Position numbers and translations under genes: made by a program
Shown: one piece after another, positions 31,236-64,000 of the stretch
Layout: every line of letters begins with the position of its first letter
How positions within the stretch are numbered: position 1 is the stretch's first letter
The notes under the pieces: generated by a model
What the model was told of the DNA's origin: nothing
Databases searched by the model: none
What the model saw: only the letters and a program-made list of their open reading frames with translations
NCBI GenBank assembly: GCA_030390025.1
Contig: CM059431.1
Location: 98,024,001 to 98,088,000 of the forward strand
Reading direction: 5' to 3'
Length of the DNA: 64,000 bases
Origin: Squalus acanthias
Taxonomy: Eukaryota

Positions 31236-31891
31236 GGAGGAAAAATTCAGTCACGACTATTTTGGGCGCGAACATTTAATTAGCGCCGGTGACCGCGAAA
31301 TTGAGTGTTAGCGCCCCAAGAGGGAAGTGGAGACTAAATCAAGCTTCACTTCTTCTTATGGAGATAATGTCGGAGAGCGGGGCGGAGACTTCAGAAGGGA
31401 AGGGCCATCGCCGCAAGCTCTGCAATACCTGGACCACCAGGACAGCCGCGATCCCGCGCGATCAACCCAGCACTCAAGCAGAAAGCCGGGCTGGTCGATC
31501 GCGGGCAGGAACCCGCCGAAAAACCTGGAACGAGAAAGGTAAGTTTTTTTTCCACTTACCTCAGCTGCCTCGTCTTTAATCTTCGCTCCCGACGCGGCCT
31601 GCCGCCCGGAGCGCGCCTCCTGCAGCTGTCGGTGTATTCGACCGGTGCTGCTGTAGGGGGCGGAAGTGAATTCCGGGTCCGGGGCGCTACTGGGGCGATG
31701 AGCATGGCGATGACGTCACGATCTCCGACTGAAGGAGATCGCGGCACAACACCGTAGCGCCGCCGCAAAACTCCCGCCAAATATGGCGGGAGTCGATGTC
31801 AGCGCCGCGCCCGGTCGCCAAGCCATTTGCACCTTGTGAGCGCCCCCTGGGGGCGCTAACGGGAGGCGCAAAGGCACCCAATTTCACCCGC
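31236..31891 (+). mobile_element. Non-autonomous Harbinger MITE inserted in the L2 tail
   Basis: Ends GGAGGAAAAATT / AATTTCACCCGC. Flanks GAT / TAT split the L2 tail GGCGC-TAT-ATAAAT. Right subterminus GGCGCTAACGGGAGGCGCAA is shared with the autonomous elements. Confidence 0.82.
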
Positions 31892-34992: not shown

Positions 34993-35947
34993 CATGCTTG
35001 GGATTTCAAACAAGGTATTTTTTATACAGTAAGTGGTATATTTCACTGGAAGAGTCAGACCAGCACTTAATGAAGTTACCGATCTATATTGACTATCTCC
35101 TTAAATCACATCTCTGATGGAATGGATGATCTGTTCAGAACTCTTCCTCACAAAGCTCCACTCCCACCATATTCCCACATTCAACTGAGTGACCTGCAGC
35201 TGGGGTCAATGGAAGTCCCATTCACATACAGACAAGCAGGTCCCTGCAGAGTAATTAAACTGCAAGGATGTTTAGGCTACACTGAAATCCATAGTGCCAC
35301 ACCTCAAAGGCCCAGTTACCCCTAGCCCCAGATCTGGTGCATAATACAGAAATAGCAGAGCTGGGAATCACCCGTACATTAATCGAGGACTCTCCATCAT
35401 CGAGTCCTGGACTCTCCGGAGAGTAACACTGACGTAGAAGCTCATCGCAACATTCCCTCTTTCTCACGAGTTTTGGACAGTCACCCACTGAAGATCACAT
35501 CTTCTGTTCCTGTTCTCAGCTAAAGACATTCACTTCCAAACAGTTGCTTTTTTTATATACACGATTGATAGACTTAATATAAACATATCGGGGGAAAAAT
35601 TAGGTCGCGCCCCGTTTGGGGCGCAAATATCGTCTGGACGCAAATATTAGCGTCTGGCGCTAATTATCGCCACTGACTGGAAACTTCACTTTTACCGCTC
35701 TGGGAGGTGAGTGGAGCGCTAAATCAGGCGCTGCACACCTGTCTTAAGACGCAAAGGCCGAGCAGTGAGGCGCTAACTCAGCGCGCGAGCGCAGCGCAGG
35801 TGCTGCCAGTTAGCGAGGGAACACAGACACACTGGCGCCGGCCAGTTCTTAAAGCGGGGGGGCCAACTTGCTCCCCAACCACACCCTGCTCATTGCAACC
35901 TTGAATCTCGGCCTGGAGAGACCTGTGAATCCATTTTGCTGCCAAGG

Positions 35948-37821
35948 ATGGAGAGGGTGAGAGAACGAGCTCAGCGCTTCACCAAGCGGGCCTTGGATGC
36001 TCTGGTTGGCGCGGTGGAGCGCAGAAGATCTATACTCTTCCCTGAGAGTGGCAGGAGGCCTTTGCCACGCGAGTACAGAAGAGTGTGGAGGGAGGTGGCT
36101 CAGAGCGTCTCCTCCAGGAGCATGGTGCCCAGGACCCACGTTCAATGCCGCAAAAAGTTCAACGACCTCACTCGGGTCGTCAGGGTGAGTGGCTTTTTCT
36201 CAATACCTCTCCATCCCTCCATCTCAACCTCACTCTATGGCCAGAGGGTCTTAAAACCCCAATGCACAACACTCATCCAACACCTATGGCCCTTTCATGA
36301 AACACACACACGCATTCCACACTTTGCATACAGTAAGGGCTATTCACCTATGGGAGGCACATCAGGCAAGACCATGGCTGCATACAGTAAGGGCTATTCA
36401 CCTATGGGAGGCACATCAGGCAAGACCATGGCTGCATACAGTAAGGGCTATTCACCTATGGGAGGCACATCAGGCAAGACCATGGCTGTATATTTACTCA
36501 GATGCTGTCCTTTTACTTGCAGGCCAAGCTGGCGCATAATAGGAGACAGCAGCAACGGACAGGTGGAGGGCGGCCTCAGCTGCAACCCCTCAGCGATCTT
36601 GAGGAGCGCGTCCACAGGATTGTGGCAAGCCGGGTGATCGGTCCCGTCGCCACTGGAGACGCCGACCCCGTTCTGGACAGCAATGGTAAGGTCATCACCT
36701 TTTTGTCCTCTGTCCTTCCACTTGTCCCTCACAACACCAGCCTTTGACACTTTCAATCCAACTTGCTAACTCGCTGCACTTATTCCTCCCTTACTGCCAC
36801 CCTGTCCTCACGCTAAAGCCACTCTTGTACCTCCCTGCTTTCAGATGGTGATTCACCAGCTGAGGAGACGGGCCCTGAAGCTGCCAGTGGGAGTGAAGCT
36901 GCAGCCGAGGAGGAAGAGGAAGCTGGAGCATCAGTGCCACCCTCTCCCGAGGAAGCCCATGCCCACACTGGGAACACGCCTTCCCTGGAGGGGAGCAGGG
37001 GGGAAGGGTCTGATGAGGGTGAAGCTCCAGGACCCAGCGGGCTGCAGCAACGCCATGGGGGTAGGGAAGAACGGGGGCCTTCTCCCCAGAGGGAGAGTAT
37101 GCCAGCGACTCCTACTGCAATGGACGCAGAGGAGGAGCGGCTGATCGCAGAAATGAACACCCAGGCGGTGGGCATCCACACTGAGCTCATAGGTGCAGTG
37201 GGAAGGGTGCCCGAATGCATTGAGTCACTGGCAAGGAGTGTGGAGCACTTCGCTGTAGCACAGGCGGATGCCACACTAAAGCTTAGTGCTGCAATTCAGT
37301 CACTGACTGCCGTGATCCCATCTCTGACTGCTCTCATGCAGACTCAGATTGAGGCCACGTGAGCACTGACTGCTGCCAACCTCGATGTTTCGTTCACATG
37401 TCCCCGGGGCTCTCACCGCGCCGCAGCAGGCCAGCAATCTGTGCTCCAGCAGATTGCTCCGGATGCTGAAGTGCTGCCCCTTGGGAGTGCCAGTGTGTCG
37501 GTCGAGCAGGGAGTTGCTGTCCTCTCTCACGATGACAGCATTCCTGCTGACAACATTGTCACTTCTCCACTGCACTTGCCACTGCCTGTAGGACAGACTG
37601 CTGCCGCCCATGCAGAGTTGGTGCAGTCTGCAGCCGGGCCCTCCAGGCCCAGAAGTGGTCGAGGCCATCCTTCAGGGGCATCTGCAGTGTCAGGGTCTGA
37701 CAATCAGCAGCCTTCCACCAGCCTTGTTGCAGCCACTGAGGTCCCATTACGGAGGAGCAGTAGGGTTAGAAGGGGGGAAGTGCGCAAGGGAAGAAGATCA
37801 CCCTCGAAGGGCAAAAAGTAG
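35948..37821 (+). pseudogene. Harbinger Myb/SANT-like DNA-binding gene, 3 exons (35948-36184, 36523-36685, 36845-37821), premature TGA at 37360-37362
   Basis: Trihelix motif RFTKRALDALV...VWREVAQSVS...RTHVQCRKKFNDL, continuing after a GT-AG intron as AKLAHNRRQQQRTGGG. Splice phases 0 and 1 are compatible. The TGA aligns with CGA in copy 2 and the frame continues to TAG at 37821. Confidence 0.85.
36326..36487 (+). repeat. 54-bp perfect tandem repeat x3 in intron 1
   Basis: GCATACAGTAAGGGCTATTCACCTATGGGAGGCACATCAGGCAAGACCATGGCT, three identical units. Confidence 0.97.
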
Positions 37822-38133
37822 GAGGTGTGACAAAATGCTGGTCATTTTTTTATTAAAGGCCGAGGTTCGTGGTCCAACTTTTGTCTAGTGTTTTGGACAT
37901 TATCTCCAGGTTGTGAGAACCAGTTATGTTAATGACTGTTTTTTTGTGTTTATTTCTATGAGTTTGTCATGAGGAAATGACACACACAGAGTTTGTAAAA
38001 TAAATAAGTTTTTGTATTCAAAATATACATGTTTGGTGTTTGGAATCATTGGTGCCTTGGCCGGCTTAGGGGTTGCGTGCTGGGTTCATTGATGTTGTTA
38101 GCAATGGCAGAAGCCATTTCCACAGCAGGGGCC

Positions 38134-39294
38134 CTAGAAGCGGCTTGCTATCAGCCGTTGATGGACGGCCCTTGCAGTTTCACCATTGTGGGCTGCCCTC
38201 CCGCCTTGGTGCTGCTGATGATCATCCTCCTCGTCCTCTTCCTCCTCTTCCTCCTCCTCCTCTGGTGGTGCGCCAAGGCCTGGTGGCATTGGCTGGGTCC
38301 TGACGATTGCCATGTTATGCAACATGCAGCACACAACTACGAAGTTGGATACTCGCTCAGGCGAGTACTGCAGGGCTCCTCCAGAATGGTCGAGACAGCG
38401 GAACCGTTGCTTCAGCACGCCGATTGTGCGCTCAATGATGTTCCTGGTAGCTTGATGGCTCTCGTTGTACCGCAGCTCAGCAGGGGTGTTGGGCGTACGG
38501 AGCGGTGTCATCAGCCAGGTGCTCAATGGATACCCCTTGTCCCCGAGAAGCCAACCAACTGGCTGATGCGGTGCCTCGAAAAGTTCTGCCACAGTAGTCT
38601 GGCGCAGGATGAAAGCATCGTGGCAGCTGCCAGGATAGTGGGCATTGACAGCGAGTATCAGCTGTCTGTGGTCACAGACCAACTGAACATTCAAGGAATG
38701 GAACCCCTTTCTGTTCCGGAATTCCTCGGCATTCTCATGTGGAGCACGCAAAGCCACATGCATGCAGTCAATGGCGCCCTGCACCATGGGGAAGCCCGCT
38801 ATCCTCGCAAAGCCCAGAGCACGGTCACGCTGCTTGTCTAGGGTCATGGGGAAAGAGATGAACTCTCGTCTCCTTTTAAAGAGGGCATTTGTGACCTGCC
38901 GGATGCAGCAATGCACCGCGAACTGGGAGATATTGGCGAGGTCCCCAGCAGCAGCTTGAAATGAGCCAGTAGCATAGAAGTTGAGAGCCACTGTGACCTT
39001 CACTGCCACCGACAGAGACGTCCTGGACCTCAGTTGAGGCTGCAGATCTGGCTGCAGCAGGTGGCAGAGCTCAGTGACCACCTCCTTGCTGAATCGCAGC
39101 CTTCGCAAACACAGCTCCTCAGACATATGAATGTAGGAGAGCTGTTCATGATATACCCTGGGAGGGTAAGCTCTCCTGTACAGACGCCTGTTGGCCCTCC
39201 TCCGTCTGGCCATCATTGCCACTCTCTCTCTGCGTCTCTGTGTCCTCCGATTCAGCTGGAGCAGGACGACGCCCCCATTCAGTGCAGCCCCCAT
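38134..39294 (-). CDS. Harbinger DDE transposase (HARBI1-related family), 386 aa
   Basis: Motifs GAIDCMHV, NRKGFHSLNVQLVCD, PGSCHD, LLGDKGY, IERTIGVLKQRFRCL and acidic C-terminal tract. Start Met chosen by alignment with copy 2. Confidence 0.95.
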   Translation of the reverse strand: MGAALNGGVVLLQLNRRTQRRRERVAMMARRRRANRRLYRRAYPPRVYHEQLSYIHMSEELCLRRLRFSKEVVTELCHLLQPDLQPQLRSRTSLSVAVKVTVALNFYATGSFQAAAGDLANISQFAVHCCIRQVTNALFKRRREFISFPMTLDKQRDRALGFARIAGFPMVQGAIDCMHVALRAPHENAEEFRNRKGFHSLNVQLVCDHRQLILAVNAHYPGSCHDAFILRQTTVAELFEAPHQPVGWLLGDKGYPLSTWLMTPLRTPNTPAELRYNESHQATRNIIERTIGVLKQRFRCLDHSGGALQYSPERVSNFVVVCCMLHNMAIVRTQPMPPGLGAPPEEEEEEEEEDEEDDHQQHQGGRAAHNGETARAVHQRLIASRF

Positions 39295-39479
39295 AGTCTC
39301 TTTGCAAGCAAAGTTATGAAGGACAGCAACCAAAGTACCAGCGAAGTTAGGATCAGTAGGCAAAACTACCTCACAAAGCGTTGACTCAATGCAGAAGTCT
39401 CTCTTTCTCTCTCTCCGAATCTCTCTCTCTCTCTCAGAACGAGTGGTGCAAAAATGTCAACCACAGAAAAAGACAGGAA

Positions 39480-39640
39480 GAGGCCCCCTTTAAATAGCGC
39501 CCCCCCCCCAGCCCCACAGCGATTGATAGCGTTCCAGTCTTCCGGTCGTTGGATGCGCCAGGCGGTAAGGCAGGGGGCGCCACTCAATTTCCGCTCCGGG
39601 GCGCCACAAGGGCGTTGCACCATGGAATGACGTCACAATC
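39480..39640 (-). promoter_or_regulatory. Putative transposase promoter (TATA-like CTATTTAAA on minus ~39489-39497; palindromic CRE TGACGTCA 39628-39635)
   Basis: Both motifs lie 200-340 bp upstream of the transposase ATG and are conserved in copy 2 (CRE at 59358-59365). Function is inferred only. Confidence 0.4.
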
Positions 39641-39926
39641 TGCGCGCGCAGGTGGTCGCGGCGGTAAAGTTTAGCGCCGCCGCACAATGTCTAGTTAATT
39701 TCCCGAGCGGCGCAAACATCGCTGCGCCCGGGCGCTAGCGGCTTTGCGCCCCATTAGCGCCCTCTTAAGGCGCTAACGGGAGGCCCAACCAACTGAATTT
39801 TTCCCCCATCGTGTGCTCCAGCCCACAGCTCTCATCTCCCTTCAGGGTGTTCCTCCCTCCCCAGCCTGAAAATAGCTTAAAATTAGTTTTAGATTAAATA
39901 ATTCGAGTTATTCGAACTCGCTCCCC

Positions 39927-47146: not shown

Positions 47147-50100
47147 AAGAGAGAGAGGTGACTAAGAGAGAGAGGAGACTAAGGGAGAGAGGGGACTAAG
47201 AGAGAGAGGAGACTCAGGGAGAGTGGTGACTAAGGGATAGAGGAGACTTAGGGAGAGAGGAGACTAAGAGAGAGAGGAGACTAAGAGAGAGAGGAAACTC
47301 AGGGAAAGAGGGAACTAAGAGAGAGAGGAGACTAAGAGAGAGAGGAGACTAAGGGAGAGAGGAGACTAAGGGGGAGAGGGGACTAAGGGAGAGAGTAGAC
47401 TTAGGGAGAGAGGAGACTAAGAGAGAGAGGGGACTAAGGGAGAGAGGAGACTTAGGGAGAGCGGAGACTAAGAGAGAGAGGGGACTAAGGGAGAGAGGAG
47501 ACTAAGAGAGAGAGGAGAATAAGGGAGAGAGAAGACTGAGGGAGAGAGGAGACTTAGGGAGAGAGGAGACTAAGGGAGAGAGGAGACTTAGGGAGAGAGG
47601 AGACTAAGAGAGAGAGAGGGGACTAATGGAGAGAGGAGACTAAGGGAGAGAGGAGACTTAGAGAGAGAGGTGACTAAGGGAGAGAGGGGACTAAGGGAGA
47701 GAGGAGACTAAGAGAGAGAGAGGACTAAGGGAGAGAGGAGACTAAGAGAGAGAGGGGACTGAGGGAGAGAGGAGACTAAGGGAGAGAGGAGACTGAGGGA
47801 GAGAGGAGACTTAGGGAGAGAGGAGACTAAGGGAGAGAGGAGACTTAGGGAGAGAGGTGACTAAGAGAGAGAGGGGACTAAGGGAGAGAGGAGACTAAGA
47901 GAGAGAGGAGACTAAGGGAGAGAGTAGACTGAGGGAGAGAGGAGACTTAGGGAGAGAGGAGACTAAGGGAGAGAGGAGACTTAGGGAGAGAGGAGACTAA
48001 GAGAGAGAGGGGACTAAGGGAGAGAGGAGACTTAGAGAGAGAGGAGACTAAGAGAGAGAGGAGACTAAGAGAGAGAGGGGACTAAGGGAGAGAGGAGACT
48101 AAGAGAGAGAGGAGACTAAGAGAGAGAGGAGACTAAGGGAGAGAGGTGACTAAGAGAGAGAGAGGAGACTAAGGGAGAGAGGAGACTAAGGGAGAGAGGA
48201 GACTAAGGGAGAAAGGAGACTAAGAGAGAGAGGAGACTTAGGGAGAGAGGAGACTAAGGGAGAGAGGAGACTTAGGGAGAGAGGATACTTAGGGAGAGAG
48301 GAGACTAAGAGAGAGAGGGGACTAAGGGAGAGAGGAGACTGAGAGAGAGAGGAGACTTAGGGAGGGAGGAGACTAAGGGAGAGAGGTGACTAAGAGAGAG
48401 AGGAGACTAAGGGAGAGAGGAGACTAAGGGAGAGAGGAGACTAAGGGAGAAAGGAGACTAAGAGAGAGAGGAGACTTAGGGAGAGAGGAGACTAAGGGAG
48501 AGAGGAGACTAAGGGATAGAGTAGACTGAGGGAGAGAGGAGACTTAGGGAGAGAGGAGACTAAGGGAGAGAGGAGACTTAGGGAGAGAGGAGACTAAGAG
48601 AGAGAGGGGACTAAGGGAGAGAGGAGACTAAGGGAGAGCGGAGACTAAGAGAGAGAGGAGACTAAGGGAGAGAGGAGACTAAGAGAGAGAGGAGACTTAG
48701 GGAGAGAGGATACTTAGGGAGAGAGGAGACTAAGAGAGAGAGGGGACTAAGGGAGAGAGGAGACTTAGAGAGAGAGGAGACTAAGGGAGAGAGTAGACTG
48801 AGGGAGAGAGGAGACTTAGGGAGAGAGGAGACTAAGAGAGAGAGGGGACTAAGGGAGAGAGGAGACAAAGGGAGAGAGGAGACTTAGGGAGAGAGGAGAC
48901 TAAGGGAGAGAGGAGACTAAGAGAGTGAGTAGACTGAGGGAGAGAGGAGACTAAGGGAGAGAGGAGACTTAGGGAGAGAGGAGACTAAGGGAGAGAGGAG
49001 ACTAAGGGAGAGAGTAGTCTGAGGGAGAGAGGAGACTTAGGGAGAGAGGAGACTTAGGGAGAGAGGAGACTAAGGGAGAGAGGAGACTGAGGGAGAGAGT
49101 AGACTGAGGGAGAGAGGAGACTAAGGGAGAGAGGAGACTTAGGGAGAGAGGAGACTAAGGGAGAGAGGAGACTAAGGGAGAGAGTAGACTGAGGGAGAGA
49201 GGAGACTTAGGGAGAGAGGAGACTAAGGGAGAGAGGAGACTAAGGGAGAGAGGAGACTAATAGAGAGAGGTGACTAAGGGAGAGAGGAGACTAAGGGAGA
49301 GAGGAGACTAAGAGAGCGAGGGGACTAAGAGAGAGAGGAGACTTAGAGAGAGAGGAGACTAAGGGAGAGAGTAGACTGAGGGAGAGAGGAGACTTAGGGA
49401 GAGAGGAGACTTAGGGAGAGAGGAGACTAAGAGAGAGAGGGGACTAAGGGAGAGAGGAGACTAAGGGAGAGAGGAGACTAAGAGAGAGAGGAGACTTAGG
49501 GAGAGAGGAGACTAAGGGAGAGAGGTGACTAAGAGAGAGAGGAGATTAAGGGAGAGAGGAGACTAAGAGAGAGAGGAGACTTAGGGAGAGAGGATACTTA
49601 GGGAGAGAGGAGACTAAGAGAGAGAGGGGACTAAGGGAGAGAGGAGACTTAGAGAGAGAGGAGACTAAGGGAGAGAGTAGACTGAGGGAGAGAGGAGACT
49701 TAGGGAGAGAGGAGACTAATAGAGAGAGGGGACTAAGGGAGAGAGGAGACTTAGGGAGAGAGGAGACTAAGAGAGCGAGGGGACTAAGAGAGAGAGGAGA
49801 CTAAGAGAGAGAGGGGACGAAGAGAGAGAGGGGACTAAGGGAGAGAGGAGACTAAGGGAGAGAGGAGACTTAGGGAGAGAGGAGACTAAGAGAGAGAGGG
49901 GACTAAGGGAGAGAGGAGACTAAGGGAGAGAGGAGACTAAGAGAGAGAGGAGACTTAGGGAGAGAGGAGACTAAGGGAGAGAGGTGACTAAGAGAGAGAG
50001 GAGATTAAGGGAGAGAGGAGACTAAGAGAGAGAGGAGACTTAGGGAGAGAGGATACTTAGGGAGAGAGGAGACTAAGAGAGAGAGGGGACTAAGGGAGAG

Positions 50101-53100
50101 AGGAGACTTAGAGAGAGAGGAGACTAAGGGAGAGAGTAGACTGAGGGAGAGAGGAGACTTAGGGAGAGAGGAGACTAAGAGAGAGAGGGGACTAAGGGAG
50201 AGAGGAGACGAAGGGAGAGAGGAGACTTAGGGAGAGAGGAGACTAAGGGAGAGAGGAGACTAAGGGAGAGAGGAGACTAAGAGAGAGAGGAGACTTAGGG
50301 AGAGAGGAGACTAAGGGAGAGAGGTGACTAAGAGAGAGAGGAGACTAAGGGGGAGAGGAGACTAAGAGAGAGAGAGGAGACTTAGGGAGAGAGGAGACTA
50401 AGGGAGAGAGGAGACTAAGAGAGAGAGGAGACTAAGGGACGGATGAGACTTAGGGAGAGAGGAGACTAAAGGAGTGAGGTGACTAAGAGAGAGAGGAGAC
50501 TAAGAGAGAGAGGAGACTGAGAGAGAGAGGAGACTAAGAGAGAGAGGAGACTGAGAGAGAGAGGAGACTGAGAGAGGGAGGACAGTAAGAGAGAGAGGAG
50601 ACTAAGGTGAGAGCGGAGACTAAGAGAGAGAGGGGACTAAGGGAGAGAGGAGACTAAGAGAGAGAGGAGACTAAGGGAGAGAGGTGACTAAGGGAGAGAG
50701 GTGACTAAGAGAGAGAGGAGACTTAGGGAGAGAGGGGACTAAGAGAGAGAGGAGACTTAGGGAGAGAGGGGACTAAGAGAGAGAGGAGACTGAGAGAGAG
50801 AGGAGACTGAGAGAGAGAGGAGACTAAGGGAGACAGGAGACTAAGAGAGAGAGGAGACTGAGAGAGAGAGGAGACTAAGAGAGAGAGGAGACTTAGGGAG
50901 AGAGGAGACTAAGAGAGAGAGGAGACTATGGGAGAGAGGAGACTAGGGTGAGAGGAGACTGAGAGAGAGAGGAGACTAAGGGAGAGAGGAGACTAAAGGA
51001 GAGAGGCGACTAAGGGAGAGAGGAGACTGAGAGAGAGAGGAGACTAAGGGAGAGAGGAGACTAGGGTGAGAGGAGATTAAGAGAGAGAGGAGACTTAGGG
51101 AGAGAGGAGACTAAGAGAGAGAGGTGACTAAGAGAGAGAGGAGACTAAGGGAGAGAGGAGACTAAGGGAGAGAGGAGACTTAGGGAGAGAGGAGACTAAG
51201 AGAGAGAGGGGACTAAGGGAGAGAGGAGACTAAGGGAGGAAGGAGACTAAGAGAGAGAGGAGACTTAGGGAGAGAGGAGACTAAGGGAGAGAGGTGACTA
51301 AGAGAGAGAGGAGACTAAGGGGGAGAGGAGACTAAGAGAGAGAGGAGACTTAGGGAGAGAGGAGACTTAGGGAGAGAGGAGACTAAGAGAGAGAGGGGAC
51401 TAAGGGAGAGAGGAGACTTAGAGAGAGAGGAGACTAAGGGAGAGAGTAGACTGAGGGAGAGAGGAGACTTAGGGAGAGAGGAGACTAAGAGAGAGAGGGG
51501 ACTAAGGGAGAGAGGAGACGAAGGGAGAGAGGAGACTTAGGGAGAGAGGAGACTAAGGGAGAGAGGAGACTAAGATGGAGAGGAGACTAAGGGAGAGAGG
51601 AGACTAAGGGAGAGAGGAGACTTAGGGAGAGAGGAGACTAAGAGAGAGAGGGGACTAAGGGAGAGAGGAGACTAAGGGAGAGAGGAGACTAAGAGAGAGA
51701 GGAGACTTCGGGAGAGAGGAGACTAAGGGAGAGAGGTGACTAAGAGAGAGAGGAGACTAAGGGGGAGAGGAGACTAAGAGAGAGAGGAGACTTAGGGAGA
51801 GAGGAGACTAAGGGAGAGAGGAGACTAAGAGAGAGAGGAGACTAAGAGAGAGAGGAGACTAAGAGAGAGAGGTGACAAAGAGAGAGAGGAGACTTAGGGA
51901 GAGAGGAGACTAAGAGAGAGAGGTGACAAAGAGAGAGAGGAGACTTAGGGAGAGAGGAGACTAAGAGAGAGAGAGAGGTCACTAAGAGGGAGAGGAGACT
52001 AAGGGAGGGATGAGACTTAGGGAGAGAGGAGACTAAGGGAGTGAGGTGACTAAGAGAGAGAGGAGACTGAGAGAGAGAGGAGACTGAGAGAGAGAGGAGA
52101 CTAAGAGAGAGAGGAGACTAAGAGAGAGAGTAGACTAAGAGAGAGAGTAGACTAAGAAAGAGAGGAGACTAAGAGAGAGAGGAGACTAAGAGAGAGAGAG
52201 GAGACTGAGAGTGAGAGGAGACTGAGAGAGAGAGGACAGTAAGAGAGAGAGGAGACTAAGGTGAGAGCGGAGACTAAGAGAGAGAGAGGGGACTAAGGGA
52301 GAGAGGAGACTTAGAGAGAGAGGAGACTAAGGGAGAGAGGTGACTAAGGGAGAGAGGTGACTAAGAGAGAGAGGAGACTTAGGGAGAGAGGTGACTAAGA
52401 GAGAGAGGAGACTTAGGGAGAGAGGGGACTAAGAGAGAGAGGAGACTGAGAGAGAGAGGAGACTGAGAGAGAGAGGAGACTAAGAGAGACAGGAGACTAA
52501 GAGAGAGAGGAGACTGAGAGAGAGGAGACTAAGAGAGAGAGGAGACTTAGGGAGAGAGGAGACTAAGAGAGAGAGGAGACTATGGGAGAGAGGAGACTAG
52601 GGTGAGAGGAGACTGAGAGAGAGAGGAGACTAAGGGAGAGAGGAGACTAGGGTGAGAGGAGATTAAGAGAGAGAGGGGACTTAGGGAGAGAGGAGACTAA
52701 GAGTGAGAGGTGACTAAGGGAGAGAGGAGACTAAGGGAGAGAGGAGATTAAGAGAGAGAGGAGACTAAGGGAGAGAGGAGACTAAGGGTGAGAGGAGACT
52801 AAGAGAGAGAGGTGACTAAGAGAGAGAGGAGACTTAGGGAGAGAGGAGACTTAGGGAGAGAGGTGACTAAGGGAGAGAGTAGACTGAGGGAGAGAGGAGA
52901 CTTAGGGAGAGAGGAGACTAAGGGAGAGAGGAGACTTAGGGAGAGAGGAGACTAAGAGAGAGAGGGGACTAAGGGAGAGAGGAGACTAAGGGAGAGCGGA
53001 GACTAAGAGAGAGAGGTGACTAAGGAAGAGAGGGGACTAAGGGAGAGAGTAGACTTAGGGAGAGAGGAGACTAAGAGAGAGAGGGGACTAAGGGAGAGAG

Positions 53101-55639
53101 GAGACTAAGGGAGAGAGGAGACTAAGAGAGAGAGGAGACTTAGGGAGAGAGGAGACTAAGGGAGAGAGGTGACTAAGAGAGAGAGGAGACTAAGGGGGAG
53201 AGGAGACTAAGAGAGAGAGGAGACTTAGGGAGAGAGGAGACTAAGGGAGAGAGGAGACTAAGAGAGAGAGGAGACTAAGAGAGAGAGGAGACTAAGAGAG
53301 AGAGGTGACAAAGAGAGAGAGGAGACTTAGGGAGAGAGGAGACTAAGAGAGAGAGGTGACAAAGAGAGAGAGGAGACTTAGGGAGAGAGGAGACTGAGAG
53401 AGAGAGGACAGTAAGAGAGAGAGGTGACTAAGAGAGAGAGGAGATTAAGAGAGAGAGTAGACTAAGAGAGAGAGTAGACTAAGAGAGAGAGGAGACTAAG
53501 AGAGAGAGGAGACTAAGAGAGAGAGGAGACTGAGAGAGAGAGGAGACTGAGAGAGAGAGGACAGTAAGAGAGAGAGGAGACGAAGGTGAGAGAGGAGACT
53601 AAGAGAGAGAGGGGACTGAGAGAGAGAGGAGACTGAGGGAGAGAGGAGACTGAGGGAGAGAGGACAGTAAGAGAGAGAGGAGACTAAGGTGAGAGAGGAG
53701 ACTAAGGGAGAGAGGAGACTAAGAGAGAGAGGAGACTGAGGGAGAGAGGTGACTAAGGGACAGAGGTGACTAAGAGAGAGAGGAGACTTAGGGAGAGAGG
53801 GGACTAAGAGAGAGAGGAGACTTAGGGAGAGAGGGGACTAAGAGAGAGAGGAGACTGAGAGAGAGAGGAGACTGAGAGAGAGAGGAGACTAAGAGAGACA
53901 GGAGACAAGAGAGAGAGGAGACTGAGAGAGAGAGGAGACTAAGAGAGAGAGGAGACTTAGGGAGAGAGGAGACTAAGAGAGAGAGGAGAATATGGGAGAG
54001 AGGAGACTAGGGTGAGAGGAGACTGAGAGAGAGAGGAGACTAAGGGAGAGAGGAGACTAAAGGAGAGAGGAGACTAAGGGAGAGAGGAGACTGAGAGAGA
54101 GAGGAGACTAAGGGAGAGAGGAGACTAGGGTGAGAGGAGATTAAGAGAGAGAGGAGACTTAGGGAGAGAGGAGACTAAGAGAGAGAGGTGACTAAGAGAG
54201 AGAGGAGACTAAGGGAGAGTGGAGACTAAGAGAGAGAGGTGACTAAGGGAGAGAGGAGACTAAGGGAGAGAGGAGATTAAGAGAGAGAGGAGACTAAGTG
54301 AGAGAGGAGACTAAGGGTGAGAGGAGACTAAGAGAGAGAGGGGACTAAGGGAGAGAGGAGACTAAGAGAGAGAGGAGACTGAGGGAGAGAGGTGACTAAG
54401 GGAGAGAGGTGACTAAGAGAGAGAGGAGACTTAGGGAGAGAGGGGACTAAGAGAGAGAGGAGACTTAGGGAGAGAGGGGACTAAGAGAGAGAGGAGACTG
54501 AGAGAGAGAGGAGACTGAGAGAGAGAGGAGACTAAGAGAGACAGGAGACTAAGAGAGAGAGGAGACTGAGAGAGAGAGGAGACTAAGAGAGAGAGGAGAC
54601 TTAGGGAGAGAGGAGACTAAGAGAGAGAGGAGAATATGGGAGAGAGGAGACTAGGGTGAGAGGAGACTGAGAGAGAGAGGAGACTAAGGGAGAGAGGAGA
54701 CTAAAGGAGAGAGGAGACTAAGGGAGAGAGGAGACTGAGAGAGAGAGGAGACTAAGGGAGAGAGGAGACTAGGGTGAGAGGAGATTAAGAGAGAGAGGAG
54801 ACTTAGGGAGAGAGGAGACTAAGAGAGAGAGGTGACTAAGAGAGAGAGGAGACTAAGGGAGAGTGGAGACTAAGAGAGAGAGGTGACTAAGGGAGAGAGG
54901 AGACTAAGGGAGAGAGGAGATTAAGAGAGAGAGGAGACTAAGTGAGAGAGGAGACTAAGGGTGAGAGGAGACTAAGAGAGAGAGGTGACTAAGGGAGAGA
55001 GGAGACTAAGGGAGAGAGGAGATTAAGAGAGAGAGGAGACTAAGGGAGAGAGGAGACTAAGGGTGAGAGGAGACTAAGAGAGAGAGGTGACTAAGGGAGA
55101 GAGGAGACTAAGGGAGAGAGGAGATTAAGAGAGAGAGGAGACTAAGGGTGAGAGGAGAGTGAGAGAGAGAGGAGACTAAGGGAGAGAGGAGACTAAGGAT
55201 GAGAGGAGACTAAGAGAGAGAGGTGACTAAGGCAGAGAGGAGACTAAGGGAGAGAGGAGACTATGGGAGAGAGGAGACTGAGGGGTAGAAATTAGGTCGC
55301 GCCCCATGTGGGGCGCAAATATCGTCCGGACGCAAATATTAGCGCCTGGCGCTAATTATCGGCACTGACAGGAAACTTCACTTTTACCGCCCCGGGAGGT
55401 GAGTGGAGCGCTCTAGTAGGCGCTGCACACCTCTCTTAAGGCGCAAAGGCCAAGGAGTGAGGCGCTAACTCAGCGCACGAGCGCAGCGCAGCTGCTGCCA
55501 GTTAGCGAGGGAACACAGACACAATGGCACCGGACACTTCTTAAAGCGGGGGGGGGCCACTTGCTCCCCAGCCACACCCTGCTCATTGCAGCCTTGAATC
55601 TCAGCCTGGAGAGACCTGTAATCCATTTTGCTGCCTAGC

Positions 55640-57570
55640 ATGGAGAGGGTGAGAGAACGCGCTCATCGCTTCACCGAGCGGGCCTTGGATGCTCTGGTTG
55701 ACGCAGTGGAGCGCAGACGATGCATGCTGTTCCCGGAGAGTGGCAGGAGGCCTTTGCCACGCGAGTTCAGAAGAGTGTGGAGGGAGGTGGCTCAGAGCGT
55801 CTCCTCCAGGAGCATGGTGCCCAGGACCCATGTTCAATGCCGCAAAAAGTTCAACGACCTCACTCGGGTCGTCAGGGTGAGTGGCTTTTTCTCAATACCT
55901 CTCCATCCCTCCATCTCAACCTCACTCTATGGCCAGAGGGTCTTAAAACCCCAATGCACAACACTCATCCAACACCTATGGCCCTTTCATCAAACACACA
56001 CACACATTCCACACTTTGCATACAGTAAGGGCTATTCACCTATGGGAGGCACATCAGGCAAGACCATGGCTGCATACAGTAAGGGCTATTCACCTATGGG
56101 AGGCACATCAGGCAAGACCATGGCTGCATACAGTAAGGGCTATTCACCTATGGGAGGCACATCAGGCAAGACCATGGCTGCATACAGTAAGGGCTATTCA
56201 CCTATGGGAGGCACATCAGGCAAGACCATGGCTGTATATTTACTCAGATGCTGTCCTTTTTCTTGCAGGCTAAGCTGGCTCATAATCGGAGACAGCAGCA
56301 ACGGACGGGTGGAGGGCGGCTTCAGCTGCAACCCCTCAGCGATCTGGAGGAGCGCGTCCACAGGATTGTGGCAAGCCGGGTGATCGGTCCCGTCGCCACT
56401 GGAGACGCCGACCCCGTTGTGGACAGCAATGGTAAGGTCATCACCTTTTTGTCCTCTGTCCTTCCACTTGTCCCTCACAATACCAGCCTTTGACACTTTC
56501 AATCCAACTTGCTAACTCGCTGCACTTATTCCTCCCTTACTGCCACCCTGTCCTCACGCTAAAGCCACTCTTGTACCTCCCTGCTTTCAGATGGTGATTC
56601 ACCAGCTGAGGAGACGGGCCCTGAAGCTGCCACTGGGAGTGATGCTGCAGCTGAGGAGGAAGAGGAAGCCGGAGCATCAGTGCCACCCTCTCCCGAGGAA
56701 GCCCATGCCCACACTGGGAACACGCCTTCCCCGGAGGGGAGCAGGGGGGAAGGGGCTGATGATGGTGAAGCTCCAGGACCCAGCGGGCTGCAGCAACGCC
56801 ATGGGGGGGGTAGGGAAGAATGGGGGCCTTCTCCCCAGAGGGAGAGTATGCCAGACACTCCTACTGCAATTGACACAGAGGAGGAGCGGCTGATTGCAGA
56901 AATGAACACCCAGGCGGTGGGCATGCACACTGAGCTCATGGGTGCAGTGGGAAGGGTGCCCGATTGCATTGAGTCACTGGCAAGGAGTGTGGAGCACTTC
57001 GCTGTAGCACAGGCGGATGCCACACTAACGCTTAGTGCTGCAATTCAGTCAATGGCTGCCGTGATCCCACCTCTGACTGCTCTCATACAGACTCAGATGG
57101 AGGCCACGCGAGCACAGACTGCTGCCAACCTCGATGGTTCGTGCACATGTCCCCGGGGCTGTCACCGCGCCGCAGCAGGCCAGCAATCTGTTCTCCGGCA
57201 AATTGCTCCGGATGCTGAAGTGCTGCCCCGTGGGAGTGCCAGTGTGTCGGGCGAGCAGGGAGTTGCTGGCCTCTCTCACGATGACAGCATTCCTGCTGCC
57301 AACACTGTCACTTCTCCACTGCACTTGCCACCGCCTGTAGGACAGACTGCTGCCGCCCATGCAGAGTTGGTGCAGTCTGCAGCCGGGCCCTCCAGGCCCA
57401 GAAGTGGTCGAGGCCGTCCTTCAGGGGCATCTGCAGTGTCAGGGTCTGACGAGCAGCAGCCTTCCACCAGCCTTGCTGCAGCCACTGAGGTCCCATTACG
57501 GAGGAGCAGTAGGGTTAGAAGGGGGGAAGTGCGCAAGGGAAGGAGATCACCCTCGAAGGGCAAAAAGTAG
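55640..57570 (+). CDS. Harbinger Myb/SANT-like protein, 3 exons (55640-55876, 56269-56431, 56591-57570), predicted 459 aa
   Basis: Donors AGG|GTGAGT and ATG|GTAAGG, acceptors TTGCAG| and TTTCAG|. 237+163+980=1380 nt with no internal stop. N-terminal trihelix motif, acidic low-complexity middle, helical segment and basic C-terminus (RRSSRVRRGEVRKGRRSPSKGKK). Confidence 0.88.
56018..56233 (+). repeat. 54-bp perfect tandem repeat x4 in intron 1
   Basis: Four identical units, identical to the three units in copy 1. Confidence 0.97.
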
Positions 57571-57864
57571 GAGATGTGCCAAAATGCTGGTCATTTTTTT
57601 ATTAAAGGCCGAGGTTCATGGTCCAACTTTTGTTTAGTGTTTTGGACATTATCTCCAGGTTGTGAGAACCAGTTATGTTATTGACTGTTTTTTTGTGTTT
57701 ATTTCTATGAGTTTGTCATGAGGAATTGACACACACAGAGTTTGTAAAATAAATAAGTTTCTGTATTCAAAATATACATGGCTGGTGGTTGGAATTATTG
57801 GTGCCTTGGCCGGCTTAGGGGTTGCGTGCTGGGTTGATTAGTGTTTGTAGCAATGGCAGGGGCC

Positions 57865-59025
57865 CTAGAAGCGGCTTGCTATTAGTCGTTGACGGACGAC
57901 CCTTGCAGTTTGACCATTGTGGGCCGCCCTCCTGCCTTGGTGCTGCTGATGATCATCGTCCTCGTCCTCTTCCTCCTCTTCCTCCTCCTCCTCTGGTGGT
58001 GCTACAAGGCCTGGTGGCATTGGCTGGGTCCTGAGGATTGCCATGTTGTGCAACATGCAGCACACGACTACGAAGTTCGAAACTTGCTCAGGCGAGTACT
58101 GCAGGGCTCCTCCGGAATGGTCCAGACAGCGGAACCGTTGTTTCAGCACGCCGATTGTGCGCTCAATAATGTTCCTGGTTGCTTGATGGCTTTCATTGTA
58201 CCGCAGCTCAGCAGGGGTGTTTGGCGTACGGAGCGGTGTCATCAGCCAGGTGCTCAATGCGTACCCCTTGTCCCCCAGAAGCCAACCAACTGGCTGATGC
58301 GGTGCCTCGAAAACTTCTGCCACAGTAGTCTGGCGCAGGATGAAAGCATCGTGGCAGCTGCCCGGATAGTGGGCATTGACAGCGAGTATCACCTGTCTGT
58401 GGTCACAGACCAACTGCACATTCAAGGAATGGAACCCCTTTCTGTTCCTGAATTCCTCTGCATTCTCTCGCGGAGCACGCAAAGCCACATGCGTGCAGTC
58501 AATGGCGCCCTGCACCATGGGGAAGCCCGCTACCCTCGCAAAGCCCAGAGCACGGTCACGCTGCTTGTCTGGGGTCATAGGGAAAGAGATGAAGTCTCGT
58601 CTCCTTCTGAAGAGGGCATTGGTGACCTGCCGGATGCAGCGATGCACCGCAAACTGGGAGATATTGGCGAGGTCCCCAACAGCAGCTTGGAATGAGCCAG
58701 TGGCGTAGAAGTTCAAAGCCACTGTGACCTTCACTGCCACCGACAGAGACATCCTGGACCTCAGCTGAGGCTGCAGATCTGGCTGCAGCAGGTGGCAGAG
58801 CTCAGTGACCACCTCCTTGCTGAATCGCAGCCTTCGCAAACACAGCTCCTCGGACATATGGATGTAGGAGAGCTGTTCACGATATACCCTGGGAGGGTAA
58901 GCTCTCCTGTACATGCGCCTGATGGCCCTCCTCCGTCTGGCCATCATTGCCACTCTCTGTCTGCGTCTCAGTATCCTCCGATTCAGCTGGAGCAGGACGA
59001 CGCCCCCAATCATTGCAGCCCCCAT
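57865..59025 (-). CDS. Harbinger DDE transposase (HARBI1-related family), 386 aa, intact
   Basis: GAIDCTHV, NRKGFHSLNVQLVCD, PGSCHD, LLGDKGY, IERTIGVLKQRFRCL; uninterrupted ORF. Confidence 0.96.
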   Translation of the reverse strand: MGAAMIGGVVLLQLNRRILRRRQRVAMMARRRRAIRRMYRRAYPPRVYREQLSYIHMSEELCLRRLRFSKEVVTELCHLLQPDLQPQLRSRMSLSVAVKVTVALNFYATGSFQAAVGDLANISQFAVHRCIRQVTNALFRRRRDFISFPMTPDKQRDRALGFARVAGFPMVQGAIDCTHVALRAPRENAEEFRNRKGFHSLNVQLVCDHRQVILAVNAHYPGSCHDAFILRQTTVAEVFEAPHQPVGWLLGDKGYALSTWLMTPLRTPNTPAELRYNESHQATRNIIERTIGVLKQRFRCLDHSGGALQYSPEQVSNFVVVCCMLHNMAILRTQPMPPGLVAPPEEEEEEEEEDEDDDHQQHQGRRAAHNGQTARVVRQRLIASRF

Positions 59026-61644
59026 ATTCTCTTTGCCAGAAAAGTAATGAGGTACAGCAACTAAAGTAGCACCAAAGTAAGGATGAACTAGGCAAAACTA
59101 CCTCACAAAGCGTTGAGTCAATGTAGAAGTCTCTCTCTCTCTCTCTCCGAATCTCTCTCTCTCTCTCAGAACGAGTGGTGCATAAATGTCGACCACAGAA
59201 AAAGACAGGAAGAGGCCCCCTTTAAATAGCGCCCCCCCCAGCCCCACACCGATTGATAACGTTCCAGTCTTCCGGTCGTTGGAAGCGCCAGGCGGTAAGG
59301 CAGGGGGCGCCACTCAATTTCCGCTCCGGGGCGCCCCAAGGGCGTTGCACCATGGAATGACGTCACAATCTGCGCGCGCAGGTGGTCGCAGCGGTAAGTT
59401 TTAGCGCCGCCGCACAATCTCAAGTTAAGTTCTCGAGCGGCGCAAACAGCGCTGCGCCCGGGCGTTAGCGGCTTAACGCCCCATTAGCGCCCTCTTAAGG
59501 CGCTAACGGGAGGCGCAACCAAGTGAATTTTTACCCCTAAGGGTGAGAGGAGACTAAGAGAGAGAGGAGACTAAGGGAGAGAGGAGATTAAGAGAGAGAG
59601 GAGACTAAGAGAGAGAGGAGACTTAGGGAGAGAGGAGACTAAGGGAGAGAGTAGACTTAGGGAGAGAGGAGACTAAGGGAGAGAGGAGACTTAGGGAGAG
59701 AGGAGACTAAGAGAGAGAGGGGACTAAGGGAGAGAGGAGACTAAGAGAGAGAGGGGACTAAGGGAGAGAGGAGACCAAGAGAGAGAGGAGACTGAGGGAG
59801 AGAGGAGACTAAGAGAGAGAGGGGACTAAGGGAGAGAGGAGACCAAGAGAGAGAGGAGACTGAGGGAGAGAGGAGACTAAGGGAGAGAGGTGACTAAGAG
59901 AGAGAGGAGACTAAGGGAGAGAGGAGACTAAGAGAGAGAGGAGACTTAGGGAGAGAGGAGACTAAGGGAGAGAGGAGACTGAGGGAGAAAGGACACTAAG
60001 AGAGAGAGGTGACTAAGAGAGAGAGGAGACTAAGAGAGAGAGGAGACTTAGGGAGAGAGGAGACTAAGAGAGAGAGGTGACTAAGAGAGAGAGGAGACTT
60101 ATGGAGAGAGGAGACTAAGAGAGAGAGAGGTGACTAAGAGAGAGAGTAGACTAAGAGAGAGAGGGGACTGAGAGAGAGAGGAGACTAAGAGAGAGAGGAA
60201 ACTGAGAGAGAGAGGAGACTGAGAGAGAGAGGAGACTAAGAGAGACAGGAGACTAAGAGAGAGAGGAGACTGAGAGAGAGAGGAGACTAAGGGAGAGAGG
60301 AGACTCGGGTGAGAGGAGACTGAGAGAGAGAGGAGTCTAAGGGAGAGAGGAGACTGAGTGAGAGAGGAGAATAAGGGAGAGAGGAGAATAAGGGAGAGAG
60401 GAGACTAAGGGTGAGAGGAGACTAAGAGAGAGAGGAGACTGAGAGAGAGAGGAGACTAAGAGAGAGAGGAGACTAAGGGAGAGAGGAGACTAAAGGAGAG
60501 AGGAGACTAAGGGAGAGAGGAGACTAAGGGAGAGAGGAGACTAGGGTGAGAGGAGATTAAGAGAGAGAGCAGACTAAGGGAGAGAGGAGACTAAGGGTGA
60601 GAGGAGACTAAGAGAGAGAGGTGACTAAGGGAGAGAGGAGACTAAGAGAGAGTGGAGATTAAGAGAGAGAGGAGACTAAGGGAGAGAGGAGACTTTGGGA
60701 GAGAGGAGACTAAGAGAGAGAGTAGACTAAGAGAGAGAGGAGACTAAGAGAGAGAGGAGACTAAGGGAGAGAGGAGATTAAGCGAGAGAGGAGACTAAGA
60801 GAGAGAGGAGACTAAGGGAGAGAGGAGACTAAGTGTGAGAGGAGACTAAGAGAGAGAGGAGACTAAGAGAGAGAGGTGACTAAGGGATAGAGGATTCCAA
60901 GGGAGAGAGGAGACAGAGAGAGAGGAGACTAAGGGAGAGAGGAGACTAAGGGTTAGAGGAGACTAAGAGAGAGAGGAGACTAAGAGAGAGATGTGACTAA
61001 GAGAGAGAGGAGACTAAGGGAGAGAGGAGACTTAGGGAGAGACTGAAAGACTAGAATAAAAAGCGAGCAGTTTCAGGACAATGCAGTGAGACGGAGTGGA
61101 ATTGTGAATTGTGAATTGTGCTTCATCTCCTGGTTTTGGCTCTTGGGCTGATTTATTACAGGAATGCTGATAAACTGCAGCCTCAAACCAAATAAAGAGC
61201 GCGATCAAAGGGAAATCTGGTACATTCCACAGAGTTGCAGAAATGCCCAGTCCCTTGCGCAGCATCGCGATTTACATATTTGGGAACATCCAGTGCATTC
61301 CAGACAGGTTTCAGGACTTTGCTCCGTGTTCCTTTATAAGGCCGAGAGATCGGGGATTGTGTGGTTGGAATGGACCCACATTCTCTCAGCAGAATGTTGC
61401 CCAAATGATACGTCTTTAATGTTTTACCCGAAGTCCCCCAGCAATTGGCTGCAGGAATCTGCCTCTCACCATTCCACAGCTCTGTGAATTTCAGAGCTCT
61501 GGCATCAGCTGTGTGCACAGATCGCTCCTCTTCATTCAAAGTTCTTTCATTGAAGTTATCTGATAACTCACATTGTGAATCCTTCAGCCGTGTCACTCAC
61601 GTTGCTTCATTCAAATTATTGGAGAATTCATATTTTCTTCGCAT

Positions 61645-62014: not shown

Positions 62015-63081
62015 AGAACATAAGAATTAGGAGCAGGAGTCGGAGTCCGCCCCTCCAGCCTGCTCCGCCCCGCCAGCCTGCTCCGCCCCTCCTGCCTGCT
62101 CCGCCCCTCCAGCCTGCTCCGCCATTCAATAAGATCATGGCTGATCTTTGACCTCAACTCCACTTTCCTGCACTATCCCCATATCCCTCGATTCCCTTAA
62201 TATCCAAAAATCTATCGCTCTCTGTCTTGAATATACTCAACGACTGAGCACCCACAGCCCTCTGGGGCAGAGAATTCCAAAGATTCACCACCCTCTGAGT
62301 GAAGAAATTTCTCCTCATCTCAGTCTTAAATGGCCGACCCCTTATCCTGAGACTGTGATCCCTGGTTCTAGACTCCCCAGACAGGGGAAAACATCCTCCC
62401 TGCATCTACCCTGTCAAGCCCTGTAAGAATATTATGGGGGAAAATTCGGTCGCGCCCCATTTGGTCGGTAACTTTTTCGGAGTGCTAAAAGTAGATTCAA
62501 CGGTAGCGCCCCATGCAGGAGGCGGGGCTACTGGAAGCGCTCCCCCTCCTTCCTGGGGCGCTACCAGTGAATATCGCGGCACTATGTGCAACAGCGCCAC
62601 GTGCGTCAGGACGTAGCGCCGCGGTACTGCAGGCCTCCCTCCCCTGACTCCACTCAAGAGGAGTGCCGGGCTGACCGAGCGCGGCCGGCACCCCGCGTGA
62701 GGAAGTGGAAGGGGGCAGGTGCTGGCAAGCGGCACAAAAAAAAAGGCCGCCCGACACCTGCCCTTTGACTTGCGCCGCTGTGGCCGCAAAAACGCCCCCT
62801 GACCCTGTCGGACATGGTGTCCGGCGGTAGGTCAGGGGGCGCAAGCGACATTTACATCCGGTGCGCGAGCGGGACGCTGCGCACGGCGATGACATCATCG
62901 CCGGAGGCGCAGCGCCACGGGGCGATACCGGCTACCACCACCGCTAACCTCCCACTGAATTTTGCAGGAGGCGTTAGTGCCGCCGCGCCCAGGCGCTAGG
63001 GGCTTTGCGCCCTGTTAGTGCCCCCCGGGGGTGCTAACGGGAGGTGCAAGAAAAGCCAATTTTTCCCCCTCTATGTTTCAA
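62015..63081 (-). mobile_element. CR1 3' fragment (62015-62435, resumes 63070-63081) split by a MITE
   Basis: Minus-strand RTRDHSLRIRGRPFKTEMRRNFFTQRVVNLWNSLPQ; AGAACATAAGAA tail; short internal expansion of CCTGCTCCGCCCCTCCAG at ~62047-62122. Confidence 0.88.
62436..63069 (+). mobile_element. Non-autonomous Harbinger MITE inserted in CR1
   Basis: Ends GGGGGAAAATTCGGTCGCGCCCC / AATTTTTCCCCC match the autonomous copy 1 ends. Flanks TAT / TCT split CR1 AGAATAT-TAT-ATGTTTCAA. Confidence 0.88.
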
Positions 63082-63468: not shown

Positions 63469-64000
63469 AAATACTGCGGGAGCGCCACACTGTCGGAGGG
63501 GCAGTACTGAGGGAGCGCCACACTGTCGGAGGGGCAGTACTGAGGGAGCGCCGCACTGTCGGAGGGGCAGTACTGAGGGAGCGCCGCACTGTCGGAGGGG
63601 CAGTACTGAGGGAGCGCCGCACTGTCGGAGGGGCAGTACTGAGGGAGCGCCGCACTGTCGGAGGGGCAGTACTGAGGGAGTGTTGCACTGTCGGAGGGGC
63701 AGTACTGAGGGAGCGCCGCACTGTCGGAGGGGCAGTACTGAGGGAGTGCCGCACTGTCGGAGGGGCAGTACTGAGGGAGTGCCGCACTGTCGGAGGGGCA
63801 GTACTGAGGGAGTGCCGCACTGTCGGAGGGGCAGTGCTGAGGGAGTGCCGCACTGTCGGAGGGGCAGTGCTGAGGGAGCGCCGCAGTGTCGGAGGGGCAG
63901 TACTGAGGGAGTGCCGCACTGTCGGAGGGGCAGTACTGAGGGAGCGCTGCACTGTCGGTGGGTCAGTACTGAGGGAGCGCTGCACTGTCGGAGGGGCAGT
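63469..64000 (+). repeat. SINE-derived 33-bp minisatellite, at least 16 units, runs off window end
   Basis: Same unit as 954-2272. Confidence 0.95.

Follow-up and report, generated by a model that had tools for sequence, protein, structure and literature searches.

The 64,000-nucleotide stretch of Squalus acanthias DNA analyzed here, referred to below as the window, contains a full-length Harbinger-type DNA transposon of 4256 bp (55282..59537, no strand assigned), which we call copy B. Its limits were set from the anatomy of the sequence, and the right terminus was marked independently by loose contig ends that fall exactly at 59537 in two sequencing runs (five contigs in run X17 and two in run X8) and represent other insertion sites. 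The element is bounded by 12-bp terminal inverted repeats (TIRs), the left one (55282..55293, + strand) starting with GGGG and the right one lying at 59526..59537 (- strand). They match at 11 of 12 positions, and at position 7 the left TIR differs from the right TIR as well as from both TIRs of a second family member in the window, copy A. Copy B is embedded in a 17-bp GA-rich satellite, with approximately 784 units in its left flank (41845-55281, +) and approximately 89 in its right flank (59538-61042, +). The trinucleotides at the positions of the target site duplication (TSD), TGA at 55279..55281 and TAA at 59538..59540 (both +), are mismatched at one of three bases. The spacing of satellite unit markers across the empty site is 20 bp, or 17+3, and a 3-bp duplication at copy B is therefore indicated by the satellite phase. 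TAA (330 occurrences) and TGA (62 occurrences) are both common there in the left array, among the eight commonest triplets listed, and one of the two TSD copies of copy B was altered or exchanged after insertion.

Copy B carries two convergent genes, arranged tail to tail. The transposase gene, on the minus strand (57865..59025, with the ATG at 59025 and the stop at 57865), has no intron and encodes 386 amino acids without an internal stop. Residues 175–327 were matched to the whole PF13359 DDE_Tnp_4 profile (1–158) with an E value of 2.5e-39. The triad D176, D252, and E288 is complete; we take these residues to be catalytic, a role that we assign from the motif and from general knowledge of such enzymes. 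D176 is present in 32 of 41 homologues, D252 in 31, and E288 in 20. In the AlphaFold model (predicted local distance difference test score, pLDDT, 87.7), D176 is inside a strand, D252 follows a strand, and E288 is in a helix, which is the layout given for the superfamily by Han et al. (PMC4482050). At 145 conserved columns, the copy B transposase departs from the consensus in 10 cases and the best homologues in 7–10. Only one of these departures, P256A, four residues past D252, is absent from copy A; position 256 is proline in 29 of the 41 homologues and alanine in none. The transposase found no match (0) in a PDB sequence search, and nothing matched at E 0.001 in Foldseek, whose top rows (E 0.01–0.1, a weak pointer) were for the most part transposases of the DDE type and integrases (TnsB, piggyBac, Mos1, and retroviral intasomes), mixed with Spt6 chains. 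Among 602 stretches of viral contigs there was no transposase relative, and the exact left-terminus pattern of copy B had no match in metagenome contigs.

The second gene, on the plus strand, is Myb-like and is composed of exon 1 (55640..55876, amino acids 1–79), exon 2 (56269..56431, amino acids 80–133), and exon 3 (56591..57570, amino acids 134–459), separated by two GT-AG introns, intron 1 at 55877..56268 and intron 2, of 159 nucleotides, at 56432..56590 (both +). The spliced frame of 1380 nucleotides gives 459 amino acids plus a stop, with no internal stop. Splicing of intron 1 is proposed by homology only: P0007, a database protein in which Myb-like and transposase parts are fused, matches exons 1 and 2 and aligns ungapped over amino acids 2–113 if the intron is spliced, and over amino acids 2–79 only if it is read through. 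Intron 2 is represented by a spliced joint in two RNA-like runs. Intron 1 also contains a 54-bp tandem repeat (4.1 units at 56017-56238 in copy B and 3.1 units at 36325-36492 in copy A), each unit of which carries a GTAAG donor-like word. Exon 1 holds a Myb/SANT domain, and residues 7–79 match PF13873 Myb_DNA-bind_5 with an E value of 1.3e-9, above the cut-off. The exon 3 product has an acidic low-complexity stretch, an Ala/Leu-rich middle, and a basic C-terminus that is a plausible nuclear signal; it has no Pfam match. A search for longer relatives of exon 1 gave one match among 158 candidates. Complex prediction for the transposase with residues 88–195 of the exon 3 product returned 'no answer' (score 0.00), was run without an alignment or folded controls, and counts neither way.

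The frames and termini were largely as the original prediction had them. Its identification of a two-gene vertebrate PIF/Harbinger element with both frames open is upheld. The uninterrupted 386-residue transposase with all DDE motifs, the cleanly spliceable 459-residue Myb-like gene, and the TIRs with one mismatch were all recovered, and two of the profiles that it had named, DDE_Tnp_4 (over its full length) and Myb_DNA-bind_5, did match. Its TSD was sound as a 3-bp duplication, seen from the satellite phase, but not as a pair of identical flanks.

Both subterminal regions are CpG-rich. The left one (55294..55639, +), with five GC-core motifs and a TATA-like word at 55539, is a putative promoter of the Myb-like gene, and the right one (59180..59525, -), with seven such motifs, a TATA-like word at 59221, and TGACGTCA at 59358, is a putative transposase promoter. 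The GC-core motif occurs five times in 359 bp and seven times in 358 bp at the two ends of copy B, once in the 3539-bp body, and nine times in the remaining 53,307 bp of the window; it is a plausible Myb-binding site. Each of the three occurrences of TGACGTCA in the window (59358, 39628, and 31711) lies within the right end of one of the related elements, and a variant is found at 62890. The right ends that carry it are otherwise only ~68% alike. This word, which we take to be CRE/ATF-like, is possibly a promoter element. Between the two genes is a shared 3' region (57571..57864, no strand assigned) with polyadenylation-like hexamers on both strands (+ at 57601 and 57748, - at 57598 and 57698), which implies that the convergent transcripts overlap at their 3' ends. 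Such overlapping ends are a possible source of double-stranded RNA.

Copy A (35590..39807, no strand assigned) is a second full-length member of the family, approximately 15 kb upstream, in the same orientation, and 93.1% identical to copy B. It has perfect 12-bp TIRs, a perfect ATC TSD, non-satellite flanks, and an open transposase frame, and its Myb-like gene is interrupted by TGA at codon 307, a CpG-type change. At TIR position 5, both ends of copy B have T and both ends of copy A have G, which is what would be seen had each subfamily transposed once the change had occurred. Comparison of the two copies gave a ratio of non-synonymous to synonymous substitution rates (dN/dS) of 0.24 for the whole transposase, 0.09 for the catalytic core at amino acids 175–327 (19.5 synonymous versus 6.5 non-synonymous changes, p 3e-9), and 0.25 for the Myb domain. 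As judged from these sequences, the catalytic core was under purifying selection in the past of the family. Exon 3 (56591-57570) differs by 33.5 non-synonymous and 6.5 synonymous changes; its dN/dS of 1.8 has a p value of 0.14, and positive selection on this exon was rejected.

Differences between the copies are scarce in the introns (4 of 497 sites versus 209 of 3700 elsewhere, p 8e-8). The low divergence spans a single tract, 55768-56632, that includes both introns of the Myb-like gene, with 12 differences in 811 sites (1.5%) versus 201 in 3386 (5.9%) elsewhere. Special conservation of the introns was rejected, though not conclusively: exon and intron sites inside the tract show no significant difference (p 0.07, or 0.25 once the 54-bp array is excluded), but the synonymous sites of exons 1 and 2 differ at 12 of 98. 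Recombination or conversion between subfamilies fits this one tract as well, although it does not account for the seven differences in exon 2 inside it.

The first 64 of the 120 listed protein matches are all from elasmobranchs, and the best are 60–66% identical. They are shark proteins annotated as 'putative nuclease HARBI1' (for example, P0001 and P0002 from Pristiophorus japonicus) that resemble the copy B transposase in Pfam domains. As no listed protein exceeds 66%, none of the annotated proteins found represents this family. A tree of 43 proteins, built with database homologues, places copies A and B inside an elasmobranch clade of 36 rows (support 100/99); of the seven rows outside it, six are from bony vertebrates. 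The branch of copy B (0.059) is longer than that of copy A (0.028). The elasmobranch matches and the elasmobranch clade suggest a lineage long resident in cartilaginous fish. The tree also contains short-branch 'HARBI1-like' clades that extend across shark and ray genera (P0039/P0040; P0022/P0026/P0066; P0010/P0012; P0004/P0005; P0009/P0015/P0021/P0023/P0031), which are candidate elasmobranch-specific domesticated Harbinger transposases.

The consensus target published for zebrafish Harbinger3_DR is a palindrome of 15 bp centered on CWG (PMC3016246). We scored the six bases beyond each TSD, 12 in total, against this consensus. Copy A scored 9/12, a value reached by 0.16% of 25,595 non-repeat background sites, and copy B scored 7/12 (0.7% of 14,890 satellite sites); their joint likeness has a p value of 3e-5. 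Two non-coding relatives in the window scored 8 and 5, giving, together with copy A, a p value of 1e-4 against the window background. The consensus of five flanks from run X17 agreed at 5/6 and the two flanks from run X8 at 3/6. In these few elements, scored partly post hoc, the family appears to prefer a target that extends beyond the TSD. The central triplets are ATC in copy A, TGA/TAA in copy B, TAT/TCT in one non-coding relative, and GAT/TAT in the other, and a CWG center is seen in none of the four elements.

In the broad sense of PIF/Harbinger, the family has several of the expected features, namely a DDE_Tnp_4 transposase with an intact triad, a second gene with a Myb/SANT domain, short TIRs starting with G or A (11/12 matching in copy B, 12/12 in copy A), a 3-bp TSD (a perfect ATC/ATC in copy A; by phase and with one mismatch in copy B), and the target preference just described. 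It lacks the TWA duplication of PIF/Harbinger as Han et al. (2015) define that group strictly, into which copy B fits only if its original triplet was TAA. NuwaI is defined by a CWG TSD, which is found in none of the four elements. The C|TNA|G of NuwaII is found in one, copy B; CTNAG occurs at 5% of satellite positions, and membership in NuwaII from the flanks of copy B alone was rejected. In its target choice the family appears to work like Harbinger3_DR, but it fits no TSD-defined subgroup of Han et al.

The abundance and expression of the family were followed in a screen of sequencing runs by sampled 31-mers. Twenty-four runs were listed and four were mapped on copy B: X1 and X8 are DNA runs, and X17 and X19 are RNA-like, their RNA status being guessed. 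The results cover 40 of 242 variant rows and 15 of 40 joints, with run X1 read to 55%. The element is present in 20 of these 24 runs; the 20 come from 13 studies and nine coded organism labels, and one of them has no label. For organism A, five DNA runs each contain 0.80–0.89 of the sampled words, and for organisms B–I the best runs contain 0.56–0.69. In X1, 30,393 contigs were placed on copy B, 6,202 of them at 99% or more; close relatives of copy B are therefore numerous. At a rough estimate, the family is present at hundreds of copies or more, with single-locus joints at ~30–60 against depth sums of 1e5–1e6; summed contig depth is unreliable as copy number and was kept out of copy counting. 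Internal-deletion joints were also found in X1 (for example, 55412-59200 and 56344-59223) at depths of 30–110.

The joint of intron 2 was seen at a depth of 264 in X17 (organism A) and 52 in X19 (organism B), in one contig each, with sides of 19 and 29 letters, and was absent (0) from both DNA runs, X1 and X8. No joint of intron 1 was found among the 15 of 40 joints covered. An exon 1 contig in X17 has A-type letters and not B-type, and the expression is therefore that of the family and not of copy B.

Taken together, these results make it likely that copy B belongs, as an ordinary full-length member, to an abundant Harbinger family resident in elasmobranchs, one with many past transpositions, and that the copy has since drifted by approximately 1% with both frames still open, for which no selection is needed. 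The family has worked, as seen from the selection on its core, the many insertion sites, the deletion derivatives, and the splicing of intron 2. Among the 40 of 242 variant rows covered, drift of copy B itself is visible at nine positions where another letter takes all or most of the depth in all four runs: 55636, 56821 (R211W), 56871 (M227I), 56964 (E258D), 57052 (L288M), 57269 (V360G), 58314 (transposase L238V), 59336, and 59449. At 56821, the letter of copy B has a depth of 48 out of 1.03 million in X1. Against seven of the eight listed X8 pieces, copy B shows 23 differences in 2524 nucleotides (0.9%), a figure set against the contigs of another organism and not against a true family consensus; the piece left out (13 differences in 204 nucleotides) overlaps another piece and looks like a different subfamily, and X8 may be cross-contaminated. 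At the epaulette shark mutation rate of 7e-10 per base per generation (PMC10587355), 0.9% would correspond very roughly to up to ~13 million generations on one lineage, the rate being that of another species and the age being lower if two lineages share the drift or if CpG decay has inflated it. In 2000 simulated trials at 0.9%, with substitutions only, 39–41% kept the frames, starts, splice sites, and triad. As approximately 40% survive such drift unselected, open frames imply neither selection nor youth, and in a slowly mutating lineage they are weak evidence of activity.

Several observations weigh against reading copy B as a drifted, ordinary copy with these properties. All of its frames, splice sites, and triad residues are intact, with no more departures at conserved columns than the best homologues have, and copy B may well be competent. 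The 6,202 contigs of X1 at 99% or more also point to many close relatives. The yardstick for its drift is the other organism's contigs mentioned above. In both RNA-like runs, contigs read through the donor of intron 1 (55589-56046 in X17 and 55834-55990 in X19), and the conclusion that intron 2 is spliced in the family depends on runs whose RNA status was guessed. The target statistics come from four elements, the boundaries of two of which were drawn by eye, and the likeness to the zebrafish target was noticed before the scoring.

The most serious alternative is that copy B or its subfamily is currently competent and autonomous, with both proteins working and the element still transposing in the germ line. 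The intact reading frames, splice sites, and DDE residues speak for it, as do the few departures at conserved columns, the family transcripts with intron 2 spliced, and the many near-identical contigs in X1. However, R211W and M227I are private to its Myb-like protein, most of the depth in the four runs gives another residue than that of copy B at transposase position 238 (L238V, read as L), and P256A places, close to D252, an alanine that no homologue has. The left TIR and the TSD are each mismatched, the branch of copy B is longer than that of copy A, and the expressed exon 1 contig of X17 is A-type. We therefore judge current autonomy to be unlikely, although worth keeping in mind. The description of copy B in the original prediction as potentially autonomous and a candidate active element or tool is not supported for this copy, given the private changes, the TIR and TSD mismatches, P256A, and the approximately 40% chance of open frames. 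Recent horizontal transfer, either into this lineage or among the nine organism labels, as for Harbinger-Snek in sea kraits, would account for the eight other labels, whose best runs contain 0.56–0.69 of the 31-mers sampled, and for a low-depth copy in organism C that is ~99% identical to copy B, and Harbinger transfer among marine animals has been reported (PMC8437027). It is very improbable here. The nearest proteins are all from elasmobranchs, X8 covers the satellite flanks too, which would be seen with a close relative or with cross-contamination, and the slow mutation of sharks (the rate in PMC10587355) means that high identity among relatives is expected.

Two further explanations hardly need to be entertained. 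In one, the genes would be a domesticated, immobile host pair like HARBI1/NAIF1, an idea that draws on the 'putative nuclease HARBI1' annotation of the homologues, the purifying selection on the core, and the short-branch clades across orders, which suggest domesticated relatives. A pair of that type would be single-copy, without TIRs, and conserved in position, whereas these genes are multi-copy and bounded by TIRs and a duplicated target. Two copies lie within 64 kb at unrelated sites, one of them with a nonsense codon, and there are thousands of variant contigs as well as deletion derivatives. In the other, the intact frames would be a product of the assembly, in which many copies within the satellite had been collapsed into one consensus. 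Assemblers can err in a 15-kb satellite array, the TSD is mismatched, and none of the contigs displayed covers the full element, nor does any listed one cross a satellite-TIR junction. However, a collapsed consensus would carry majority letters, which disfavors collapse, as copy B has non-majority letters, one of which has, in a DNA run, the depth of a single locus (48); in addition, the five organism A DNA runs hold 0.80–0.89 of the words of copy B.

With copy B taken as an ordinary member of a resident family, its history can be outlined by analogy with Harbinger3_DR and rice Ping/Pong. Promoters in the two CpG-rich ends would drive convergent transcripts. The spliced Myb-like protein would bind the subterminal motifs and the TIRs, and would also bind the transposase and carry it into the nucleus, where the DDE transposase could cut at the TIRs. 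Integration would be into a ~15-bp palindromic target with arms like those of Harbinger3_DR, the 3-bp center being duplicated. Copy B may have inserted at a site that ranks among the best of this type in the 17-bp satellite and then drifted by roughly 1% with both frames still open, for which selection would be unneeded.

Harbinger3_DR and its derivative Harbinger3N_DR from zebrafish, compared here by their descriptions, share with copy B the DDE and Myb-like genes, the 3-bp duplication, and the palindromic target arms. They differ in that the centers found here are never CWG, and copy B is naturally open whereas Harbinger3_DR is a consensus rebuild. According to accounts that cite Sinzelle et al. 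2008 (PMC2836001, PMC9392472), both proteins are needed for Harbinger3_DR transposition and excision is usually precise; the same accounts state that its Myb-like protein binds the TIRs and the N-terminal end of the transposase and imports the transposase into the nucleus. For Harbinger-Snek, 269 fully intact copies are described from Laticauda colubrina, together with a single intact copy, which is transcribed, from L. laticaudata (PMC8437027). Like the family of copy B, it is a large vertebrate two-ORF (open reading frame) Harbinger family with natural intact copies, transcription, and short non-autonomous derivatives; unlike it, Harbinger-Snek was acquired horizontally from a source resembling a marine invertebrate, whereas the relatives of copy B are from elasmobranchs. 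Families with both ORFs intact are also reported across eukaryotes (88 PIF/Harbinger, 11 NuwaI, and 22 NuwaII; PMC4482050). The rarity of intact copies implied by the original prediction does not agree with these counts. NuwaI and NuwaII of the PHIS superfamily, as characterized in PMC4482050, resemble copy B in their DDE and Myb/SANT ORFs, TIRs of 12–61 bp starting with GG(G), length of ~4.5 kb, and occurrence in animals. The flanks of copy B read C|TNA|G as in NuwaII and, unlike NuwaI, lack CWG. A spontaneously inserting animal PIF/Harbinger is reported from Caenorhabditis inopinata (PMC13668399), and coelacanth Harbingers are cited as abundant (PMC3750513).

Elements of this kind are already known, copy B is one copy among many, and naturally intact vertebrate Harbingers have already been published. 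The modest novelty is the host group. Etchegaray et al. 2022 (PMC9179366) report no Harbinger in the elephant shark and state that other cartilaginous fish should be checked, and the present family fills this small gap. Our literature search, which lay outside subscription journals, Repbase, and Dfam, found no publication devoted to shark Harbinger families, and no paper on heterologous tests in human cells was found. A bolder view is that this is a natural, competent, still-mobile Harbinger of cartilaginous fish that has kept the ~15-bp palindromic target with a relaxed center (ATC, TAA, or TAT versus CWG), which we regard as doubtful. If true, the element would count as a vertebrate two-component transposon that integrates sequence-selectively and needed no reconstruction, and it would form a natural pair with Harbinger3_DR for mapping the residues that read the target arms versus the center, in a family for which the PDB and Foldseek searches gave no solved structure. 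If copy B or its subfamily is active, mechanistic work and engineering would gain a vertebrate Harbinger that occurs naturally and prefers an extended target.

The two non-coding relatives, like copy A, were absent from the original prediction. One is an element of 634 bp (62436..63069, no strand assigned) similar to miniature inverted-repeat transposable elements, with family-type TIRs, internal inverted repeats, and the flanks TAT/TCT. The other is an older element of 656 bp (31236..31891, no strand assigned) with decayed TIRs and the flanks GAT/TAT. It sits at the end of a dispersed repeat, and its left flank aligns with other repeats of the window up to 31235; its flanks look like the 3' tail of a long interspersed nuclear element. 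Elsewhere in the window, one 33-bp minisatellite forms six arrays (954-2272, 11011-11330, 17259-17819, 23068-23841, 25887-26477, and 63472-64000), and the long ORFs within them are repeat artefacts.

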